Assembly (NCBI GenBank): GCA_012511175.1
Contig: JAAZGO010000002.1
Location: 1,047-65,046 of the forward strand
Direction: 5' to 3'
DNA: 64,000 nt
DNA from: Fastidiosipila sp.
Lineage (GTDB): Bacteria; Bacillota; Clostridia; Saccharofermentanales; DTU023
Shown here: piece after piece, positions 7,052-55,967 of the stretch
Layout: every line of letters starts with the position of its first letter
How positions within the stretch are numbered: position 1 is the stretch's first letter
Position numbers and translations under genes: made by a program
The notes under the pieces: model-generated
The model's database searches: none
Told to the model about the DNA's origin: nothing
The model's input: the letters and a program-made list of their open reading frames with translations, nothing else

Positions 7052-7154
7052 AACTTATCGCGAGAGGTGGAGGGACTGGCCCTGTGAAGCCCGGCAACCG
7101 CGGTGATGCGGCGGTGCTAATTCCTGCAGATCGCAAGATCTGAAAGATGAGGTT
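7052..7154 (+). promoter_or_regulatory. SAM-I (S-box) riboswitch
   Basis: ACTTATCGCGAGAGGTGGAGGGACTGGCCCTGTGAAGCCCGGCAACC...GGTGCTAATTCCTGCAGA...GAAAGATGAGG matches the S-box core (AGAGGTGGAGGGACTGGCCC, CCCGGCAACC, GGTGCTAA). It lies upstream of metK. An extended -10 TGCTATAGT is at 7026..7034. Confidence 0.9.
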
Positions 7155-21937: not shown

Positions 21938-22014
<77 letters not shown>

Positions 22015-26133: not shown

Positions 26134-26519
26134 AGCCCACCTCCCGTGATCAAGGCATTTGTCTTCTTTCGCAAAAGAAAACCCGAAATGCCGCACTCCT
26201 TTTTTGATACCCAGCCTACATGCCAGGTGGGTGCCCTGCGGTGGTCTTAGAATGTCCTTCGAAAAGGCTTATCCCTATTCCACATCGACCCGGACTCCCC
26301 TTCAAAAAATGGTGGTCCAAAAACAAGAGTGCCGCGCATTCCAGGCAGCTTCATGATAGCACGATTGCAAAGGGGCTTCAAATCTTCCGGTTACATGATG
26401 CCCGTCACACAGGGCCGCAGGGATAAGGCACGTGATATAGTATCATATGGACAAAAATGCATCCGCCCTGCCTGCGGGCAGCGGCGGTTCCAGAACAATT
26501 CCATTACAAGGAGGACGCG

Positions 26520-40956: not shown

Positions 40957-41397
40957 ATGGACGGAAATAGGCAAGAAAAAAAGAAGGCAGGGAAGCTGGC
41001 AGCTGTCCTGGCAGTCACCCTGCTGGCAGTCTGCTTCACTTTGGCAGGCAGGAGCGCGCCCGTCAGTGCCTATACAGCAGGCCAGAGAAAGTCACTTTCA
41101 ACGGCAGATCTGTCCACTTCAAGGGAGCGGATCCTCAAATCCGCGGCCGCCCACGTCACAAGGGCCAATCAGGTCGGCTATGGCTATAACCGGGTCCTGA
41201 ACGGAGATCAGTACCTTCCGCTTGCCAGCTCCAGCCAGGGTTTTTGTTGTGTCGACCTGGTGACCCACGTGGTCTACACATCGACGGCTGTCCTGATCAG
41301 CGGCCGCTATCATTCCATTGAGGAAACCCTGGCGGCCCGCACCACTACAGTGCCAGCAATGGGCTTGTCTTTAATACACAGACGGTATCGACCTTGA
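40957..41397 (+). CDS. N-terminal fragment of the surface adhesin: signal peptide plus the Cys half of an NlpC/P60-like domain
   Basis: Signal peptide KLAAVLAVTLLAVCFTLAGRSAPVSA/Y. GFCCVDLVTHVVY resembles the NlpC/P60 nucleophile motif (G.DCSG.V..vY). The frame ends at TGA 41395..41397 while the next frame continues the domain. Confidence 0.6.
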   Translation: MDGNRQEKKKAGKLAAVLAVTLLAVCFTLAGRSAPVSAYTAGQRKSLSTADLSTSRERILKSAAAHVTRANQVGYGYNRVLNGDQYLPLASSSQGFCCVDLVTHVVYTSTAVLISGRYHSIEETLAARTTTVPAMGLSLIHRRYRP

Positions 41398-44222
41398 AAT
41401 CCCAGCTTCAGGCTATCCCCGCCCTTTATGCTTCCCTGGGCGCCGGGGTGAATCCATCCAGCCTGAAACTGGGAGACATTGTCCTTATGGGGGACAGGGA
41501 CGGCTCCGCGCTGAATCATTCGGTCCTGGTCCTGGGAGAGATCACTTCCGGAGAAAATGCCCACATGAAGATTCCAGGCTTTAATGCCAAGACCTCCTAT
41601 TTCATCAACATGAGCTCAGCGACGGGGGCCACTTATCAGAGTACCGACCGCTTCAACAAGGCCTGGAGTGCGGAGGCTCCCAACAAAGGCTATTTTATCA
41701 AGGCAGCCTACCGGCCGCTCTTTGACATCAAGCAGCAGGACCTGGGCGGTTTCAGTCTGAAAAAGACTGACGCCTTGACCGGAGCCGGTTTGCCGGGCGC
41801 CGTTTTCCGCCTGACGGATCCGGATGGGACAAGCAGGCAGATCAGCATGGTTTCTTCAGAATACCTATCGAACAAAGAATACCGGCCGGGCGTCTACACC
41901 CTTCAGGAAATTTCCGCCCCCCGCGGTTACCTGCTTGACCCCTCCGCCCACACCCTGATCATCAGATCCGACGAAATCAATGAAACTTACCGAAGCAATC
42001 CCCTGAAGAATTCACCAGACAAAGGAAAGATCGAAATCAGCAAAAAGGACGCAGTTACCGGCGCCGCCATCAAGGGTACCGTTTTTGAAGTCTCTCAATT
42101 TGCCTCTTTTCCCGCCTCCGCCACGCTCAGGCTGACCACCGGCACGGACGGGACGGCGACGTCACCGGACCTGATGCTCAGCGAGGGGGTGACGGCCTAT
42201 GTAAGAGAAGTTTCGGTTCCCGCCCCCTACCTGCTCGATACACAGGTCAGACAGGCAGTGCTGAGGCGAAGCCAAACGGTGACCCTTGCACTCCAAAATG
42301 ACAGGGCCCAGGGCAGGCTCAGTTTGAACAAGACCTGCTCATTGACGGGCAAACCTCTTGAGGGCGTGGTTTTTGAGATCAGAGACCGGGCAGGGGGGTT
42401 GATTGATTGCCTGATTACGGATCAGGACGGCCTTGCCGAATCCGGGGCATTGCCCCTGGGATCCTATCAGCTGATCGAAAGGGAGGCAGCCAAAGGCTAT
42501 CTGGCCGATGAGAGGCCCAAGACTTTCGATCTCGCCTATGAAGACATGGTGACGCCGCTTGTCAGCGTTCATCTCGGGCTTGACAATCAACCGATCCGGG
42601 GAGCCATCCTGATCGAGAAGCTGGAAAAAGAAAGCGGAGTGCCCATACCGGGGGCTGTCTTTGAGATTCTTGACGAGGAGGGTGAACCCGTCCTCGATTA
42701 TGAGGGGGAAGGGCTTCCGCTTCTGGTGAGCGACGGGGAGGGCAGGGTGCGGACCCCTGATCTTCGCTGCGGCCGCTATCAGATCCGGGAAGTTGAGAAC
42801 CCTGAAACCTATTACCTCAATGAAGAGGTCTATGAAGTGTCACTTGTCCTGCATGAAGAAGTGGTCAAGGTCATGATTCCCAATGAGAAGGTCCAGGTCC
42901 GGATCCAGATCAGAAAATTTGACGAGGAATCCCTTGAACCGCTCCAGGGTGCAGTCTTTGAAGTGGTCAAAAACGGGGAGGGATCCCCGCCCGAACTGGT
43001 CGCATCCGGTCTGGTCACGGATGAAAAAGGGCAGGCCACAACAGACAGGTTTCTCCCTGTGGGGGATTACCGGCTGCTGGAGACGTGTCCTCCGGAGGGT
43101 TATTCATCCGGTGAAGATCTGTGTTTCCAAATCACGCGGGAGACGGGCAGCCTTCTTCTGGAACGGGGCGGTCAGGCCATGGTTTTGCAGGTTGGCAATA
43201 AGCCTGTTGAGCTTGAAGTCTCAAAAAGAGGAACAGAAGGCGGCCAGGAGCTTGGGGGGGCAGAACTCCAGCTCATCGACAAGGAAAGCGGCCAACTGTT
43301 GGAGGAGTGGATTTCCTCCGGGGAGCCGCACCGGATCACCCGCCTGACCGTTCACCGGGCTTATGTTTTGGAAGAAAAGAAAGCGCCGCCCGGCTATGCC
43401 CTGGCGGAAGCTCTTAATTTTTCTGTTGAAGACAGCATGGAATGCCAGCAGCTGGTCATGCAAAATGAATTGACCTGTCTCCTGATTAAAAAACTGGATC
43501 AGGAAACAGGCGCTCCTTTAAGTGGCGCGGGCTTCCAGGTACAGAGTCTTGACGGGCAGGCTCTCTTCTTTTCCCAGGACCCGGAAAGGGGTGTTTATAC
43601 CTGGGCACCTCACACGGGGAATGAGGGACAGGCGGCACTTGAAAGCAACCGGGAGGGGGAGGTCGAGATCCGGGGCCTGCCTGCGGGCAGCTACCGACTG
43701 CTCGAAGTCAAAGCCCCCCATGGATACAACCGGCCGCCCCAGACTCTTTCCTTTACCCTGCCACCGGAAGCGACTGCCGCTGATCCCTGCACCCTCCAGC
43801 TTCCCAACAGGCAGTCGGAGGTCATTCTCACCAAAATTGACGCCATGACCGGCAAAGCCCTGGCGGGAGCCCGGCTGAATGTTTTTAATGAATGCGGGGA
43901 AACAATTATTTCCGGCACAACCGACAAAAAGGGGCAGATCATCCTGGCCGGCTTGGCTCCAGGCAAGTATGAGGTCAGGGAGGAAACCGCTCCCAGAGGC
44001 TATCAGAAGTCAGAGGAGCTTCTGCTTTTCAGCCTGGATGAATTCGGGGAAACAAAAGGGGAGCTCATCTTAAAGAACCTGCCGCAAAAAGCACCCTCAC
44101 CGGGCGCATCGCCCATCATTCCCTGCCTGATTCCTGCCCTGGCTGCACTGGCGGGAGGGGTCCTTCTCCTCATGGTTCTGACCAGGAAATACGGAGGAAA
44201 ACGGGAAGACCAGAAGATTTAG
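41394..44222 (+). CDS. surface adhesin body: His half of the NlpC/P60-like domain, 8 SpaA/CnaB-type repeats and a C-terminal sorting-signal-like anchor
   Basis: LKLGDIVLMGDRDGSALNHSVLVLG resembles the PGD...f.....HVgiy motif. There are eight repeats of about 95-110 aa of the pattern G.l.l.K.D..tG..L.GAvF.l.d..G.....l.TD..G......L..G.Y.l.E..AP.GY. The protein ends NLPQKAPSPG, then a hydrophobic stretch, then RKYGGKREDQKI. Confidence 0.75.
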   Translation: MKSQLQAIPALYASLGAGVNPSSLKLGDIVLMGDRDGSALNHSVLVLGEITSGENAHMKIPGFNAKTSYFINMSSATGATYQSTDRFNKAWSAEAPNKGYFIKAAYRPLFDIKQQDLGGFSLKKTDALTGAGLPGAVFRLTDPDGTSRQISMVSSEYLSNKEYRPGVYTLQEISAPRGYLLDPSAHTLIIRSDEINETYRSNPLKNSPDKGKIEISKKDAVTGAAIKGTVFEVSQFASFPASATLRLTTGTDGTATSPDLMLSEGVTAYVREVSVPAPYLLDTQVRQAVLRRSQTVTLALQNDRAQGRLSLNKTCSLTGKPLEGVVFEIRDRAGGLIDCLITDQDGLAESGALPLGSYQLIEREAAKGYLADERPKTFDLAYEDMVTPLVSVHLGLDNQPIRGAILIEKLEKESGVPIPGAVFEILDEEGEPVLDYEGEGLPLLVSDGEGRVRTPDLRCGRYQIREVENPETYYLNEEVYEVSLVLHEEVVKVMIPNEKVQVRIQIRKFDEESLEPLQGAVFEVVKNGEGSPPELVASGLVTDEKGQATTDRFLPVGDYRLLETCPPEGYSSGEDLCFQITRETGSLLLERGGQAMVLQVGNKPVELEVSKRGTEGGQELGGAELQLIDKESGQLLEEWISSGEPHRITRLTVHRAYVLEEKKAPPGYALAEALNFSVEDSMECQQLVMQNELTCLLIKKLDQETGAPLSGAGFQVQSLDGQALFFSQDPERGVYTWAPHTGNEGQAALESNREGEVEIRGLPAGSYRLLEVKAPHGYNRPPQTLSFTLPPEATAADPCTLQLPNRQSEVILTKIDAMTGKALAGARLNVFNECGETIISGTTDKKGQIILAGLAPGKYEVREETAPRGYQKSEELLLFSLDEFGETKGELILKNLPQKAPSPGASPIIPCLIPALAALAGGVLLLMVLTRKYGGKREDQKI

Positions 44223-46739: not shown

Positions 46740-47162
46740 CTATAATAAACCCAGGCGGCCTGCAAGCTTGCAGCAGTCAATATAGGCTGAAGACGTCTCG
46801 CCGTATCTTTCTTTTACGTCCGCTAACCTTTCTTGAACGTTTGTCTGTCGCCCGTCTGGGTTGACATGCAGATCAGCGATATTTAGTATCCTCAAGGGCT
46901 CTGAATCATAGGGCACATCAGGTTTACCATGGTAGAAAACTTCCTTCCAGTATTTGTACCCGTTGCGTTCCAATACTTTTCCTGCAATCTCTGCGTGTTG
47001 TCCAAGGCAGGAGGCATATTCATAGCCTACATCGTGGAGCAGCCCAAGCATAAACATGTCTTCAGCAAATTCCTCATTATCGGGATAGAGGGTGTTTGCG
47101 ATTTCTTTCATCTTCCTTGCAACGCCCAAACAATGCAGCATTCTTCGCGTATCAAGCCTCAA
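46740..47162 (-). CDS. small HD-domain phosphohydrolase (third gene of the STAND operon)
   Basis: H...(MLHCLGVA) and LGLLHDVGYEY give the H..HD metal-binding signature. AAGAGGTGG RBS precedes TTG 47162, 11 nt after the Nudix stop. Confidence 0.75.
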   Translation of the reverse strand: MRLDTRRMLHCLGVARKMKEIANTLYPDNEEFAEDMFMLGLLHDVGYEYASCLGQHAEIAGKVLERNGYKYWKEVFYHGKPDVPYDSEPLRILNIADLHVNPDGRQTNVQERLADVKERYGETSSAYIDCCKLAGRLGLL

Positions 47163-47173
47163 AATACCACCTC

Positions 47174-48067
47174 TTATCTAAGATTTCTTTCCCCTGTTTC
47201 AAAATAATTTCGGACGTCCTTCAATCTTGTTTTCTGAGAGTCTGCCATGGGCAGCTTATCTGCATTTTCAAGTTCGATCCATATGAAATTTGTCGATTCT
47301 TGATCGAGTTTGGGGTGCCCTGAAACAATTACTCCAGCGTACAGCAAGGTAAACTCTTGTCTGATTTCCCCATCCGAGTACTCGACTTTGATGTTCGGGT
47401 CGGTATATGTTCCAATGATGTCAGTGATGCGAATTGTGTAGCCAGTTTCTTCTTTGACTTCCCTCAAAGCACAGGCTGTCATGTTTTCTCCAATCTCCAG
47501 TGTACCTCCCGGCATGGTCCATTTCTCATTGTCTTTCCTTTTAAGCAATAAAATACGATTGTTTTCCACAATTGCCACAGCAGCAGCCGGGCGTATGGCA
47601 TTTGCCTTCGGCGAAGCCGGATCATATGAATAATCTTTCCTGATTTCACTTAAGCCCCCACGTATCCATTCTGCAACGATGTCATCCGCTTTGTAGCGAT
47701 GTTTGTCATTAATTGATGGAACTTTGATGAAAAGGATTGTGGTGCCGCCTTTTGCTTTTTGTGCATAAATCGTACCTCTTTTGATAACAAAGAAATCCCC
47801 GCGCTTAAATTCATATTCAATATTCTTTTTGATATCCAGGTATTTGGTCCATCCCGACACCACGTAATGATACTCCGTGACGGTATCATGATAATGAGGG
47901 TCTTCCACTGAGAATTCCTTGTACTCCGTAAGGCCAATTTCCACTGCGGTATCTTGCAGATGCTCAATTGTTTGATTCTTGTGAAGATTTCCGACAAAGT
48001 ACTGCCTGCTCATTTCCTTCAGTGCTTCATCAATTTGTGTTTTTGCGATCTTAGTAAATCCACTCAT
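47174..48067 (-). CDS. cupin-Nudix hydrolase fusion protein (second gene of the STAND operon)
   Basis: The N-terminal half has a cupin-like HYHDTVTEYHYVVSG...GDFFVI..G..Y. The C-terminal half has a complete Nudix box GGTLEIGENMTACALREVKEETG. GAGGA RBS lies 7 nt before ATG 48067; the track start is TTG 48085. Confidence 0.8.
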   Translation of the reverse strand: MSGFTKIAKTQIDEALKEMSRQYFVGNLHKNQTIEHLQDTAVEIGLTEYKEFSVEDPHYHDTVTEYHYVVSGWTKYLDIKKNIEYEFKRGDFFVIKRGTIYAQKAKGGTTILFIKVPSINDKHRYKADDIVAEWIRGGLSEIRKDYSYDPASPKANAIRPAAAVAIVENNRILLLKRKDNEKWTMPGGTLEIGENMTACALREVKEETGYTIRITDIIGTYTDPNIKVEYSDGEIRQEFTLLYAGVIVSGHPKLDQESTNFIWIELENADKLPMADSQKTRLKDVRNYFETGERNLR

Positions 48068-48081
48068 TTTTTCATCCTCGA

Positions 48082-50535
48082 TCAAAGAAATAGCAAATAG
48101 AAGTCTTGGACATCTTTGCCAGCGATTAATCTGTCGACTATGGATACATTATATGAATAGTTCATCGATTGAGCGTCGAAGCGCAGACACTGCAACATTT
48201 CAAGTTCGGCGGCACCCGGAGGTTCGTGATCCAGAGTGAAAAGCATGCGGGCCGTTTTCGCGTTAATCGTCCCCCATGCATGGCCGATTCGGTGATAAAT
48301 TGCCTCCGCCTGTTTGACGAGCAGATGCCCCTGGTCATGGCTCTTCTTCGACAAATGGAGCATGGCTTGGCCCAAAAAAGCGTGAGCGAGCCATCCCTGC
48401 AAGTTTCTTTGTGAAGCTAGGCACGCAAGTTTCTCGAAACAATACTGCGCCTCTTGGTATCGTTGAAGCTTTCGATAGATTTCTCCCATTGAACCAAGCA
48501 AGTAGAGATGGTAGCGTGTTTCAACATCAGAATCTATTCTCAGATACTTTTCACATAATTCCAATGCTTGTTCTGGCAAATCTTTGACAGCAAGCATGTC
48601 AGCCATTTTTCTTGCGGTTCGAACCTCTAAGGCATCATTGTGAGTCTCTTTCGCAAAGCGATCAGTTTTCTTCAACCACTTATCCGCCAGCTCGAATTCA
48701 CCCGCCAATGGACTGAGGTTTCCTCCAATCAGGAACAATAGTTCACCATATTCTTCTTCAAATTCCGAGACATCGTCTTTCACGGCGAATTCCAAGGCTT
48801 CATGTATCAGCCCATCTACCGGGTAGCGGAACATCCCATGATGGATCCTCCTGATTGCCAACCGGAGAAGCTCTTTGTTTTTAATGATTATTTCCTGGGG
48901 AAACCTGCTCAATGTTGCGCCACAAATTGCGATGGCCTCTTCATAGTTCCCACCCAAGTGAACAATATCGACATAAATATTAATCAGATCGATTGGCAGG
49001 GTGAGTAAACCGTATTTCTCAATGATCATCCGTATAGTGCCCAGGACAAAGCTCTGTTCGCCGCGAAGCTGCAACTCCGCAATGAATTTGCGGTAAGATT
49101 CCTGGAACCAAGTGAAAAAAACACTCGCAGGCAATACCTCGCACTTGTGGTAGACCATCTCAGCAAACGGATCTTTCATCCTGTGACTCAGGAAAATTTC
49201 CTCATAATAGTCAGCCATGACCTGATGGATGTGTTGGGTGGTTTCAAAATCGATGTGTTTTTGTAAGCCCTTTTTCATCAACAAATGAATAAAATAGTGC
49301 TGTTTTTCTCTTGAAATGAAAGAGTAATCGTTAAATCCAGCGAATTTCGAGAGGGAATAGCCGGGAACAAACTGCCTGGCCAGAAGATCGAAAATTTCCC
49401 GCGTATAGAAGCGCGGAATTGACAGTACCTTCAGTAGCTCCACTTCGTTGCCTGAAAGATTATTTGCAAATCTCTCGATGATCTCAGAATAATCGTGTCC
49501 GAAATCGGATAGACAGGGCGTTCTTCCGCTGTTAACAATATCAGCATACGTTTTTAGAGCGAGCGAAAGATAAAAAGGGTATCCTTGACAGCTCTCGACA
49601 ATTTTGTCAAGTATCGCTTCCTCCTTGATCCCCGCACTCAACAGGTATTCGTACGAGTAGGCGGTTTCCAGATTGCGAAGTTCACACATTTCAATGTACT
49701 CGTTCCATTCCTGCTCCCACCTTAGTTTTTCACGGCCGAAAATCACGAAAAGGCAGCCAGGAAAATACATGATAAAATCTTTAATCCATCTTTCACTTCT
49801 GTTCCTATGAATGCTATCACTCTCGTATGCGTTCAACGCTTCAAAAGTGTCAATAAAAAAGACGACATTCAGTTCTGGATTTTTTTGTTTTATGCGCTGC
49901 AAATCACGCTCAAAATATGCTGGCAGCCTTTCCTCAATTTCGATGATGTCCAAATCTTCAAAGCTTTGAAGATCACCCTTCATTGCTTCGTCCATTCGCA
50001 GCGTCTTGAAGCGGTCAGAAAGCCGGTCAAAGATATTTATTGCAACTTGGGTTATGCCACTATCAAAAAGTGATACAATGCTCAAACCGATATCGAATTT
50101 TTTGGATAATTCTTCTTTTTCCCTGCTGTACGCTGTATCAGGGTATTTTTTTTTAAAGTACATAGCGTATGCAATTTCAAAGAATTTGTAATGGAATTTG
50201 CTTCTACTTTCACTGCTGTCAACTAAACTGATAAGGGCATCCCCGGGGTTCCGATTTTCAGGTGAACTGAAATCCAGATGAAAACGGAGGGCATTTATGC
50301 CATACAGCTTGTCGTGTAAAGCGATGAGTTCTTTTTTTAATCTAGACTTCCCGATGCCGCCAACGCCGTGGTACATAACGATCTTGTAGTCATTGGTTGA
50401 ACGGGAAAGGGCATCGGAGAATACTTTTATCTCACGCCCTCGGTTAACAAAGCGGTCGTCAATGGAAAATTTATTTTTGGAATGATCGAACGTGTGTTTT
50501 GGCCCTATCACACCATCTCCCCCTCCTCTATCCAT
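48082..50535 (-). CDS. STAND (NB-ARC-like) P-loop NTPase with a C-terminal TPR-like repeat region and no N-terminal effector domain
   Basis: Walker A YHGVGGIGKSRL, Walker B-like VVFFIDTFEAL, LFVIFGRE, and CQGYPFYLSLAL at the position of the NB-ARC GxPLAL motif. The C-terminal half is helical repeats (e.g. GNYEEAIAICGATL, LQRYQEAQYCFEKLACLA). A promoter at 50636..50664 argues for ATG 50535 or GTG 50511 as the start rather than the track start 50706. Confidence 0.8.
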   Translation of the reverse strand: MDRGGGDGVIGPKHTFDHSKNKFSIDDRFVNRGREIKVFSDALSRSTNDYKIVMYHGVGGIGKSRLKKELIALHDKLYGINALRFHLDFSSPENRNPGDALISLVDSSESRSKFHYKFFEIAYAMYFKKKYPDTAYSREKEELSKKFDIGLSIVSLFDSGITQVAINIFDRLSDRFKTLRMDEAMKGDLQSFEDLDIIEIEERLPAYFERDLQRIKQKNPELNVVFFIDTFEALNAYESDSIHRNRSERWIKDFIMYFPGCLFVIFGREKLRWEQEWNEYIEMCELRNLETAYSYEYLLSAGIKEEAILDKIVESCQGYPFYLSLALKTYADIVNSGRTPCLSDFGHDYSEIIERFANNLSGNEVELLKVLSIPRFYTREIFDLLARQFVPGYSLSKFAGFNDYSFISREKQHYFIHLLMKKGLQKHIDFETTQHIHQVMADYYEEIFLSHRMKDPFAEMVYHKCEVLPASVFFTWFQESYRKFIAELQLRGEQSFVLGTIRMIIEKYGLLTLPIDLINIYVDIVHLGGNYEEAIAICGATLSRFPQEIIIKNKELLRLAIRRIHHGMFRYPVDGLIHEALEFAVKDDVSEFEEEYGELLFLIGGNLSPLAGEFELADKWLKKTDRFAKETHNDALEVRTARKMADMLAVKDLPEQALELCEKYLRIDSDVETRYHLYLLGSMGEIYRKLQRYQEAQYCFEKLACLASQRNLQGWLAHAFLGQAMLHLSKKSHDQGHLLVKQAEAIYHRIGHAWGTINAKTARMLFTLDHEPPGAAELEMLQCLRFDAQSMNYSYNVSIVDRLIAGKDVQDFYLLFL

Positions 50536-50635
50536 TGATTCTGTGAACTGGTTCCAGTCAGTGTTCGCAAAGAGAGGCGATTCCCTCTGCACCCAAAAAA
50601 ACGGAACATGTTGGAATGAAGGCCCAGACAACAGA

Positions 50636-50664
50636 ATTGTAAAGCATTTTTTTTTGTATATCAA
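50636..50664 (-). promoter_or_regulatory. near-consensus sigma-A promoter of the STAND operon (TTGATA-17 nt-TACAAT)
   Basis: The reverse strand reads TTGATA tacaaaaaaaaatgctt TACAAT, about 95 nt upstream of ATG 50535. Confidence 0.55.
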
Positions 50665-51238
50665 CGTTTCAGGGCACCCTGGGATAATGACACGAGCGGA
50701 TGGCACCGCCCGTTGTTGCTGCGTTCAGTCCCGCCAGTATGCCGCGGATAGAAGGAGGATTGTTGATGCCATCACGGGATAAGGCTCGTGTCGACAACCC
50801 TGGAATAACGCCTGGAAAGAGATTGAACTGGAAGATTATTTGAAATTTGATTCTTCCCAGGGCCTTTCAAAGCCAGAGGGCACCAACCTGCTGTTCCAAA
50901 GCCGTAGAAGAGGAGCGCAAAAACGTGAAAGCAGAGCAGTCGATGGCATACCTTTGGCATTCACTCTCCAACGCGTGGAATGATTGTCCAGGTCGGACCC
51001 GAACAAGCTTCAGGATTCCCTCTTTGTCCTGTGTGAACAATCTGGAAATCCGGTGCCCCTGCCGAGGCTACAACTCCTGCTGTCGCTAAACTTTGACGGT
51101 ACCATCTTCAGCTGGTTAGGTATGAACAATCGGAAGGTATATGCTATTAGGAGAAGGCTGAGGTCATGCACTTCAATGAACGGCGCCTGTCGGAGGGGTG
51201 CCGTGCCGAACCGGCCATCTGTTTGAAAGGAGTTGTCC

Positions 51239-54956: not shown

Positions 54957-55967
54957 ATGCAACAAGAGAACAAATCTCTTTGCCCTATTTGTAATGAACG
55001 ATTGACATTGTTCAAAGAAACACTTCGTGGAATAAAAATCTGTTCAAAACACATGGCTGAAGCGGGGATATTCCCTGAGGACAGGGTTAACGAACCAGAT
55101 GAATTCTACACTATTGAAGAAATTAAGTCACGCATTGAATACATTCGAACCAATACAGGTGAAGTTGGTGGGGGGAAGCAGACAATTTGCCCAATATGCA
55201 GGGATATCCTCGCGATGTCCCGGATAAAATTGCAGGGCGGGATAAAGATCTGTGAGATACATCTGAAAGAGGCTGGGTACGACCGCAACAATCCAAATTC
55301 GAAACCCTTTAGCCAGGTTTCCCTGGAAGAGATCAAAGAGTCCATCCGCTTGAAGTCGCCGGCTGAGGACTCTAATGAAATTTTTGAGCAGCGTTTTGAT
55401 CCAGTGCCTCGGGAGGATGTAGAAAGATTCAAACGCACGAAGCAGATCGGCCAAATTATTGCTTTCGATGATGAAAATAAGAACTGGGCGCTTCTTTCAC
55501 CGCCTGATGGCGAGATACGTCTGATACTTCCCTACGATACCATTATTGGGTTTGAATTGATTGAGGACGGCAAGACAATTGAACAAAAAGGCCTTGGCAG
55601 AGCTGTGGCAGGGGGTCTGTTATTCGGCGCGGCCGGCGCGATCGTGGGTGCAGTCACGACAAGTAAAAAAATTGATGAAATATGCCGCTATTTGAGGATT
55701 AAAATAACCTTAGATGATATTATCAGGCCTGCGGTTTATGCTGACATAATCACAGAAACAACGCCGAAGGAAACGGTCGCTTATCAGGAATCGTGGAATT
55801 ATGCGCAGGAAATCATTTCAGTCCTGCAAAATATTATTGACAAATACCATAAGGTTGCAACGATCACAACAATTGAAGAGGTCAAGCAATTCAAAGAATT
55901 GCTTGATCTAGGGATTATTACGGAAGAGGAGTTTGTAAAAAAGAAGAAGGAATTATTGGGCCTCTAA
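54957..55967 (+). CDS. double zinc-ribbon / glycine-zipper / SHOCT-domain protein
   Basis: Two N-terminal repeats CPIC(N/R)..L......L.G.IKIC..H..EAG. A glycine-zipper segment GLGRAVAGGLLFGAAGAIVGAV. The C-terminal EEVKQFKELLDLGIITEEEFVKKKKELLGL is a SHOCT signature. The gene is AT-rich. Confidence 0.7.
   Translation: MQQENKSLCPICNERLTLFKETLRGIKICSKHMAEAGIFPEDRVNEPDEFYTIEEIKSRIEYIRTNTGEVGGGKQTICPICRDILAMSRIKLQGGIKICEIHLKEAGYDRNNPNSKPFSQVSLEEIKESIRLKSPAEDSNEIFEQRFDPVPREDVERFKRTKQIGQIIAFDDENKNWALLSPPDGEIRLILPYDTIIGFELIEDGKTIEQKGLGRAVAGGLLFGAAGAIVGAVTTSKKIDEICRYLRIKITLDDIIRPAVYADIITETTPKETVAYQESWNYAQEIISVLQNIIDKYHKVATITTIEEVKQFKELLDLGIITEEEFVKKKKELLGL

Follow-up and report, generated by a model that had tools for sequence, protein, structure and literature searches.

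Overall organization of the locus

The stretch of DNA analyzed here (64,000 nucleotides of contig JAAZGO010000002.1 from Fastidiosipila sp., assembly GCA_012511175.1; hereafter the window) contains a compact cassette of three closely spaced genes on the minus strand, 3.9 kb in total. Gene 1 (48082-50511, or 48082-50535 with an alternative start) encodes a predicted STAND (signal transduction ATPases with numerous domains) NTPase with a tetratricopeptide repeat (TPR) sensor, gene 2 (47174-48067) a cupin-Nudix fusion of 297 residues, and gene 3 (46740-47162) an HD-superfamily phosphohydrolase of 140 residues. The stop codon of gene 1 at 48082 is separated from the ATG of gene 2 at 48067 by 14 nucleotides (nt) that include a GAGGA ribosome-binding site (RBS), and an 11-nt gap containing the RBS AGAGGTGG lies between the stop codon of gene 2 at 47174 and the TTG start of gene 3 at 47162. 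The GC content of the cassette (0.41-0.47 over 46.5-50.5 kb) is lower than that on either side (0.54-0.60). Both the tight packing of the genes and their AT-richness relative to the flanks had been pointed out in an earlier reading made from the letters alone (the sequence-only reading), and both are confirmed by the list of open reading frames (ORFs), the RBS in each gap and the base composition.

The mechanical ORF of gene 1 extends to 50706. The sequence-only reading had placed the start at an in-frame ATG at 50535, with ~55 residues ahead of the P-loop. The GTG at 50511, which stands immediately after the RBS GGAGGGGGAG and is the start used in public gene calls, is the likelier one. With this start, the protein has 809 residues, and therefore ~48 residues, not ~55, precede the P-loop.

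A candidate sigma-70-type promoter, TTGATA-17-TACAAT, is located on the minus strand at 50636-50664, upstream of gene 1 and ~125 nt from its start. It agrees with the consensus at 10 of 12 positions, is the top match of the region and is plausible as a promoter. The near-consensus site described in the sequence-only reading is thus present, but it is not distinct from the background, as the 9 promoter-like sites observed in the region are no excess over a shuffled control (7.7 ± 2.6). Two runs labeled 'RNA-Seq' look like DNA, with contigs of up to 14 kb and even depth, and one genuine metatranscriptome yielded just a 251-nt contig, inside gene 2.

The non-coding stretch between gene 1 and a divergent radical-SAM gene (50512-51232, ~700 nt) is unusually long. 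An inverted repeat lies within it (50678-50697 and 50784-50803), and it has no Rfam match.

Gene 1 encodes a STAND NTPase that ends in a TPR sensor

The gene 1 protein is predicted to consist of two modules. Residues 1 to ~470 (49102-50511) form the NOD module (for nucleotide-binding oligomerization domain), composed of a P-loop domain, a helical domain and a winged helix, and residues ~471-809 (48082-49101) form the TPR sensor module. In the protein-library search described below, matches to the NOD only and matches to the TPR only form distinct classes, with the border at profile position 476/477. The AlphaFold2 (AF2) model, with a pLDDT of 84.9 and the first ~24 residues disordered, displays the same order: a P-loop domain, helical and winged-helix portions to residue ~420-470, and all-helical repeats to the C-terminus.

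The Walker A motif, GVGGIGKS, is encoded at 50344-50367. It fits the pattern GxxxxGK[ST], and the Walker B pattern hhhhD(D/E) is present as well. Across 30 homologues of gene 1, the Walker A and Walker B residues G49, G51, G52, G54, K55, D221 and E224 are invariant, the sensor-I arginine R260 is invariant or nearly so, G310 and P312 of the GxP element ('GYPF' motif) are invariant, and H409 is kept in at least 90% of the sequences. Judged by these residues, gene 1 has a complete ADP/ATP-switch NOD with its switch positions intact. The best fold match in the PDB, identified with Foldseek, is PH0952 (6mfv, E = 9e-12), followed by Avs3, SAMD9, CED-4 and Apaf-1. A sequence search of the PDB returns generic TPR matches (LGN) only, and the Pfam matches of gene 1 (NB-ARC, AAA_16 and TPR) are all below threshold.

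No effector domain is detected in gene 1 by Pfam or in the AF2 model, with only the ~48 residues before the P-loop to accommodate one, and no helix-turn-helix (HTH), LuxR or SARP domain is found in Pfam or NCBIfam. Sequence and model together indicate that gene 1 belongs to the STAND NTPases, with a NOD followed by a TPR sensor and with neither a fused effector nor a DNA-binding domain.

Gene 2 and gene 3 encode predicted nucleotide hydrolases

Gene 2 is divided into two domains by Pfam, by the homologue alignment and by its AF2 model (pLDDT 91.8), which contains two compact domains, the cupin half being a beta-barrel. The cupin domain (~47693-48010) carries an HxHx4E motif at 47873-47896, and the Nudix domain (~47198-47605) carries a Nudix box (GGTLEIGENMTACALREVKEETG) at 47441-47509. 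Pfam identifies NUDIX (6e-19) and Cupin_1 (3e-5, above cutoff), with Cupin_2 below cutoff. The box, GGTLEIGENMTACALREVKEETGY, matches the Nudix consensus Gx5Ex7REUxEExGU; its 23-codon translation stops at G209, and the last residue, Y210, is taken from the homologue alignment.

In 45 homologues, residues G187/G188, E194, R202, E203, E206, E207 and G209 of the Nudix box are invariant, as are H58, H60, E65 and G72 in the core of cupin motif 1, G(x)5HxH(x)3-4E(x)6G. The histidine of cupin motif 2, G(x)5PxG(x)2H(x)3N, is substituted, and an invariant Y101-A-Q103 is found in its place. Gene 2 is predicted from these features to combine a cupin with an intact His2-Glu pocket and a catalytically complete Nudix diphosphatase. 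The structural neighbors of the Nudix half are diphosphatases acting on diadenosine tetraphosphate (Ap4A), on NTPs and on UDP-X/CDP-X (NDP-sugars). The gene 2 family (453 homologues) is uniform in length, the top 120 members all having 291-317 residues (nearly all 297-300) at 48% identity or more. Gene 2 is better conserved (~50-55% identity) than gene 1 (~37-40%).

Gene 3 matches Pfam HD above cutoff (5e-7). In 16 homologues, no variation is seen at the residues of its H..HD..H..H..D site (H10, H43-D44, H56, H78 and D97), and its TTG start is backed by the RBS and by the N-termini of homologues. The protein is thus predicted to be a small HD phosphohydrolase with an intact metal site. Its best sequence match in the PDB, the YqeK Ap4A hydrolase (8jja), is weak (E = 0.067). 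The domain assignments that the sequence-only reading had given for the three genes (STAND NTPase with TPR repeats, cupin with a complete Nudix box, and a 140-residue HD phosphohydrolase) therefore stand, and so does its statement that gene 1 has no recognizable effector or HTH.

Distribution and genomic context

A k-mer-limited search identified 32 homologues of gene 1, of ~800 residues or more and with 93-99% query coverage, none of which has a source-given name. When the gene 1 profile was compared to a whole library of 1.8 billion proteins, 9,126 representatives matched, 1,107 of them at E≤1e-30. The full-length matches define ~45 clusters at 50% identity.

The triad recurs at 36-58% identity in ~12 unrelated genomic contexts from several phyla, with hosts that include Lachnospiraceae, Eubacterium and Fusobacterium. 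Cupin-bearing variants are also found in Bacteroides, Parapedobacter and Sedimentibacter. A conserved syntenic core locus, which the sequence-only reading had named as a finding that would speak against defense, is not what we observe, since the flanks differ in each lineage. They include sugar-transport genes and gdh in one locus (L005), a mobile or defense-like patch with HTH_17, PBECR4 and AbiE in another (L006), cell-wall genes in a third (L008), and PFOR and PTS genes in a fourth (L010). The window itself derives from a bacterium of anaerobic digesters and sludge. The best explanation of the comparative sequence data is that the triad is a single operon that moves horizontally and is maintained as a conserved cassette. 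Its base composition, with a GC content of 0.42-0.44 compared to 0.55-0.58 in the host, speaks for this as well.

The TPR sensor is genetically coupled to the cupin

To describe the partners of the cupin-Nudix protein, 80 metagenome loci of gene 2 homologues were fetched, and the upstream neighbor could be classified in 56 of them; a downstream HD gene was tallied only in loci where this was determinable. A gene-1-type protein lies upstream in 7 of the 56 loci (6 full length and 1 partial match; HD downstream in 6 of 6), and a protein matching the TPR half of gene 1 only in 30 (HD downstream in 3 of 19). A CorA-like membrane protein takes the upstream position in 14 loci (HD downstream in 12 of 13), and the remaining 5 belong to neither class.

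The cupin or cupin-Nudix gene thus stands after a protein ending in the TPR type of gene 1 in 37 of the 56 loci, whichever NOD precedes this TPR. The alternative NODs include a Zn-ribbon-TIR-NACHT/NPHP3_N arrangement (L101, L104 and L038) and nSTAND1 (L131). The TIR-NACHT versions have their own N-terminal effector domain. Over 282 residues, the TPR half of gene 1 shares 30% identity with that of the TIR-NACHT-TPR protein of L104 (E = 8e-39), whereas the NOD halves are unrelated.

The genes behind the sensor vary as well. Close relatives of gene 1 are followed by cupin-Nudix and HD genes, while the partner is cupin-Nudix only in Parapedobacter, and a stand-alone cupin with an HAD phosphatase in Sedimentibacter. 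An HAD phosphatase is present in place of HD in L026, and in soil contigs the cupin and Nudix domains are encoded by separate neighboring genes. Four loci contain a stand-alone cupin only (L027, L028, L076 and the fragmentary L075). The STAND proteins of three of these contain an extra N-terminal region of ~170-190 residues (L027:7329-7900, L028:7440-8000 and L076:7431-8000; 28-30% identity between L027 and L076), which has no Pfam match and is a candidate for a novel effector or adaptor domain. More distant clades of gene 1 are partnered by His_Phos_1, a metallo-beta-lactamase-fold protein, or Amidase_2 or DCC1-like genes. These data point to a stable unit, as seen in gene order and sequence, composed of a gene 1-type TPR sensor and a cupin, while the NOD that precedes it and the hydrolases that follow it are exchangeable.

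Two further arrangements were observed in the course of this survey. In Neobacillus and Fredinandcohnia (L079, L081, L085, L086 and L089), an Amidase_2 gene of the PGRP type (e.g. L085:10371-10865) follows a relative of the gene 1 NOD with a 3-nt gap or an overlap, a pair consisting of an NLR-like (nucleotide-binding leucine-rich repeat-like) NTPase and a peptidoglycan-recognition-type amidase.

The second arrangement concerns the CorA-like protein, which has ~420-440 residues and is located directly upstream of cupin-Nudix (with or without HD) in loci that have no STAND gene (L114, L117, L119-L121, L123, L125-L127, L129, L138, L139, L141 and L142; e.g. L125:4691-6004). It contains a C-terminal CorA-like transmembrane pair and an N-terminal domain of ~300 residues without annotation, and it falls into 3 sub-lineages with 42-55% identity. 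We considered whether it could be a relative of gene 1, but an hhalign probability of 0.1% indicates that the two are unrelated. The CorA-like protein and cupin-Nudix/HD possibly represent a second, independent type of system that uses the same module.

Defense genes in the neighborhood

The sequence-only reading had suggested that homologues be checked for an association with defense islands. We scanned 137 neighbor proteins from 15 loci against PADLOC. Strong matches include BrxC and PglX/PglXI (E = 0), HEC-01A (3e-145), PDC-S72 (5e-99), AbiEi (7e-94) and PifA (9e-91), as well as UzuA, IetA and CARF-PDDEXK. A complete BrxC-PglX (BREX) pair is located directly downstream of the gene 1 and cupin cassette in two independent loci (L028 and L076), two TIR-domain proteins immediately follow the triad in L038, and AbiEi/AbiEii are close to the copy in L006. 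The association therefore exists for some copies, but the neighbors are purely of the housekeeping type in several loci, the window among them.

A conserved fourth gene was also considered and rejected: the large ORFs that follow the cassette in L008, L010, L028, L038 and L076 are mutually unrelated, and some of them are the BREX or TIR genes mentioned above. In L008, three large ORFs (708, 750 and 1164 residues; L008:10512-18482) lie directly after the triad. A Tubulin_2 domain is present in the last of them, and none of the three has a PADLOC match. This block may be another uncharacterized system.

Putative function

The reading that we favor, tentatively and with slightly less than even confidence, is that the cassette is an undescribed modular variant of the STAND conflict or defense systems, most likely anti-phage, with hydrolysis of nucleotides or of nicotinamide adenine dinucleotide (NAD+) as its output. 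In this mechanism, the TPR sensor and the cupin protein would jointly perceive a trigger, which could be a phage protein or an infection-made small molecule held in the cupin pocket. The NOD would then exchange its nucleotide and oligomerize, and oligomerization would cluster or activate the cupin-tethered Nudix domain, which would hydrolyze a dinucleotide or nucleotide that is essential. The foremost candidate for this substrate is NAD+, because of the analogy to MisA of the Metis system (see below) and because of the TIR NADase in the sister systems. The HD protein (HAD in one relative) may dephosphorylate the mononucleotide product and render the depletion irreversible; alternatively, it may remove a basal ligand and so avoid self-activation, as MisB does. 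Depletion of the metabolite would lead to abortive infection.

This proposal differs from that of the sequence-only reading, in which one sensor NTPase works with two effectors encoded in trans. The latter is not borne out by the survey, which favors a link between the TPR and the cupin, contains the module beside a CorA-like protein with no STAND gene, and reveals the HD gene to be optional. Since the sensor is linked to the cupin and HD can be missing or replaced, the Nudix and HD domains could be effectors, co-effectors or signal-clearing enzymes. The observation itself is thus confirmed and its interpretation partly supported and refined, the cassette being a candidate STAND immunity variant, proposed from sequence data, that has a cupin as its coupling domain and whose nucleotide-hydrolase partners are encoded in trans and can be exchanged.

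A more specific form of the proposal, which we regard as rather speculative, assigns the cupin the role of a co-receptor. It would capture an infection-made small molecule and present it to the TPR, so that a STAND 'resistosome', triggered by a metabolite instead of a phage protein, would fire a Nudix NAD+/nucleotide diphosphatase tethered to it in trans. The same module would plug into the TIR-NACHT, nSTAND1 and CorA-like proteins.

The logic of the operon can be compared to that of Metis, an experimentally validated defense system (bioRxiv 10.1101/2025.11.05.686725, Osterman et al.). In Metis, MisA, a PUA-like sensor with a calcineurin-like NAD+ diphosphatase, is activated by m6dAMP, and MisB, an HAD phosphatase, clears basal m6dAMP and thereby prevents autoimmunity. 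In type II Metis (MisC/MisB), a transmembrane effector takes the place of MisA. Genes 2 and 3 could likewise be a self-sufficient core, in which the cupin senses a danger molecule and activates the Nudix domain, HD degrades the basal signal, and gene 1 or the CorA-like protein is a separate arm or amplifier. We consider this unlikely, though several points favor it. The cupin-Nudix(+HD) module does occur without a STAND protein, after the CorA-like protein in 14 of the 56 loci and with no recognizable upstream partner in 5. The phosphatase of L026 has the fold of MisB, the higher conservation of gene 2 compared to gene 1 would fit a core of this kind, and the logic of Metis, including the variant with a transmembrane effector, is a matching one. 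However, the cupin is tied to one TPR type in 37 of the 56 loci despite exchanges of the NOD. A coupling that survives such exchanges argues for a direct functional link rather than an independent arm. Moreover, most TIR and nSTAND1 versions lack the HD gene that should clear the signal, the CorA-like protein coexists with cupin-Nudix whereas the transmembrane protein of type II Metis replaces MisA, and the folds themselves are unlike those of Metis.

Several observations weigh against the defense interpretation that we favor. PADLOC v2.0.0 contains no family that matches gene 1 at E≤0.1, its Avs and bNACHT models included, and its only match to gene 2 is the generic Nudix candidate PDC-S07 (6e-14, residues 161-285). 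NudC ranks only 38th among the structural neighbors of the Nudix half, and the sequence does not fix the substrate. The flanks in the window are of the housekeeping type (leuS, a radical-SAM gene, an MFS transporter and an adhesin), and the cassette is fixed in its own species, with a radical-SAM/leuS block on one side and a C_GCAxxG/MFS block on the other. No empty site was found: the triad is present on all 19 contigs that have the identical C_GCAxxG flank protein, and the radical-SAM flank protein was not on record in this search. The cassette borders have only trivial repeats of 14-22 nt and no integrase, and no tRNA or Rfam match lies within 46-52 kb. Carriage by phages is not supported, because no relative of gene 1 was found on viral contigs. 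The counts of defense genes given above are raw matches without a matched control. The HD gene is mostly missing with TIR and nSTAND1 NODs, a pattern that suits neither a general effector function nor a general function in signal clearing. Its distribution, retained with effector-less NODs and with the CorA-like protein, matches no model perfectly. Finally, cupin-Nudix is kept beside TIR-bearing STAND proteins, and together with the CorA-like protein in loci lacking a STAND gene, so the Nudix domain may not be the killing effector.

Alternatively, the cassette may have no role in immunity. It could be a STAND-regulated housekeeping or stress module that acts on a nucleotide alarmone or damaged metabolite, such as Ap4A, ADP-ribose or oxidized NTPs, with gene 1 as a scaffold for two sanitizing hydrolases. 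The housekeeping flanks and fixation in the species of the window, the metabolic flanks of L005 and L010, and the identity of the hydrolases (the Nudix fold and the YqeK-like HD fold are classically those of house-cleaning and Ap4A enzymes) are in line with this view. It would also agree with the existence, in bacteria and archaea, of a broad clade of NOD-TPR proteins that lack an effector and have no assigned role, and with the survey of Lee et al. 2026, in which only 198 of 589 STAND clades are classed as defense-associated. We nevertheless assign it a low probability, equal to that of the Metis-like core. A housekeeping role sits poorly with the patchy cross-phylum distribution, the atypical GC content and flanks that change with every lineage. 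BREX, TIR and AbiE genes adjoin some copies, a TIR domain is fused to the same sensor in the sister systems, and partner genes are exchanged between clades, as is typical of conflict systems.

Within a defense role, the Nudix and HD proteins might act only as negative regulators, either like antitoxins or by clearing a signal. Killing would then be due to the oligomerized STAND protein, which might, for instance, hydrolyze ATP without restraint or sequester a host factor, or to an effector encoded elsewhere. This could explain why TIR-bearing relatives, already equipped with an effector, retain cupin-Nudix, and why cupin-only cassettes contain an extra N-terminal STAND domain and no hydrolase; MisB is a precedent for a protective phosphatase. 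We find this possibility improbable, as gene 1, with its ~48 residues before the P-loop, has no recognizable effector, and the catalytic residues of the Nudix domain are invariant in a domain that is fused to the coupling domain like an output module. We also know of no earlier case in which the NTPase activity of a STAND protein is by itself lethal.

The remaining alternative, that gene 1 is a transcription regulator of the MalT/AfsR type controlling a metabolic Nudix/HD pair, has in its favor that MalT is itself a STAND protein with a helical-repeat sensor and that gene 1 has a weak similarity to TPR_MalT (1.6e-4, below threshold), but it is effectively refuted because no HTH, LuxR or SARP domain was found in Pfam or NCBIfam, while the AF2 model contains only the winged helix internal to the NOD, followed by TPR to the C-terminus, and relatives have TIR rather than DNA-binding domains.

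In the known STAND/NLR-like immune proteins of bacteria, the effector is part of the same polypeptide, and phage proteins are sensed directly. The family described here would differ in that its outputs (Nudix, HD, HAD, TIR and CorA-like) are swapped like cartridges and that its receptor may have two components. If the defense reading is correct, bacteria would possess a two-component receptor/adaptor logic more like that of eukaryotic NLRs, with their guard/co-receptor and adaptor-recruitment schemes, and Nudix diphosphatases would join the defense effectors that deplete metabolites. A role could also be assigned to part of the large pool of 'effector-less' STAND-TPR proteins represented by the 9,126 matches to the gene 1 profile. 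The cassette is short and widespread, and it lends itself to direct tests.

Other features of the window

A second GC-poor islet (0.42-0.45) is located right after leuS. It consists of one gene on the plus strand (54957-55967) encoding a protein of 336 residues with repeated CPICxxxL...C motifs, annotated publicly as PH_gly_zipper/SHOCT. A SpaA-domain surface protein is encoded on the plus strand at 41394-44222 and by an ORF just upstream. Here and in some strains it consists of two parts (146 and 942 residues), and in other strains it is a single protein of 1088 residues. The gene thus seems to be interrupted by a split or a frameshift in some strains but not in others. Rfam identifies a SAM riboswitch (7052-7153, plus strand), a tRNA (21941-22014, minus strand) and 6S RNA (26176-26350, minus strand).

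Comparison with known systems

The sequence-only reading had recognized no named system in this triad, a view that PADLOC (no model for gene 1) and the literature support: we found no description of a STAND, cupin-Nudix and HD system, although the coverage of the literature is incomplete and an earlier description is possible.

Gene 1 shares the arrangement of a NOD followed by a C-terminal helical-repeat sensor with Avs/AVAST, with bNACHT and with the ~90 defense-associated STAND families of Lee et al. 2026. Avs3 is among its top fold matches, and some copies of the cassette are close to defense genes. The effector of Avs is fused N-terminally, whereas the candidate outputs of the present system are encoded by separate downstream genes, and the literature searched describes no Avs family with a cupin-coupled sensor. 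Lee et al. 2026 observed that sensors can be common to several of the STAND clades in their survey, as is the case for the TPR sensor described here across different NODs. Their survey does not mention cupin or Nudix partners.

The best fold match, PH0952 from Pyrococcus horikoshii, is similar in that it consists of a NOD and a TPR sensor without an effector, but its sequence identity to gene 1 is only 13%. We know of no cupin, Nudix or HD partners of PH0952. The PADLOC candidate PDC-S07 is a stand-alone Nudix protein of ~135 residues without cupin, STAND or HD partners, and resembles gene 2 only in the generic Nudix domain. The YqeK-type Ap4A hydrolases share the H..HD..H..H..D metal-site pattern with gene 3. 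They are longer (~190-216 residues compared to 140) and occur in a different genomic context.

The closest functional analogue of the cassette, by similarity of operon logic, is Metis. Both have a small beta-barrel-type sensor fused to a nucleotide diphosphatase, an adjoining small phosphatase, and a version with a transmembrane protein, and the HAD phosphatase of the relative L026 belongs to the same class as MisB. The components differ: PUA-like and calcineurin-like domains in MisA correspond to cupin and Nudix domains in gene 2, and HAD in MisB to HD in gene 3. Metis has no STAND NTPase, which the present cassette does, and its type II transmembrane protein replaces the sensor-diphosphatase, while the CorA-like protein accompanies it. 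The cassette thus belongs neither to Metis nor to any named Avs family, and its resemblance to Metis is one of logic only.

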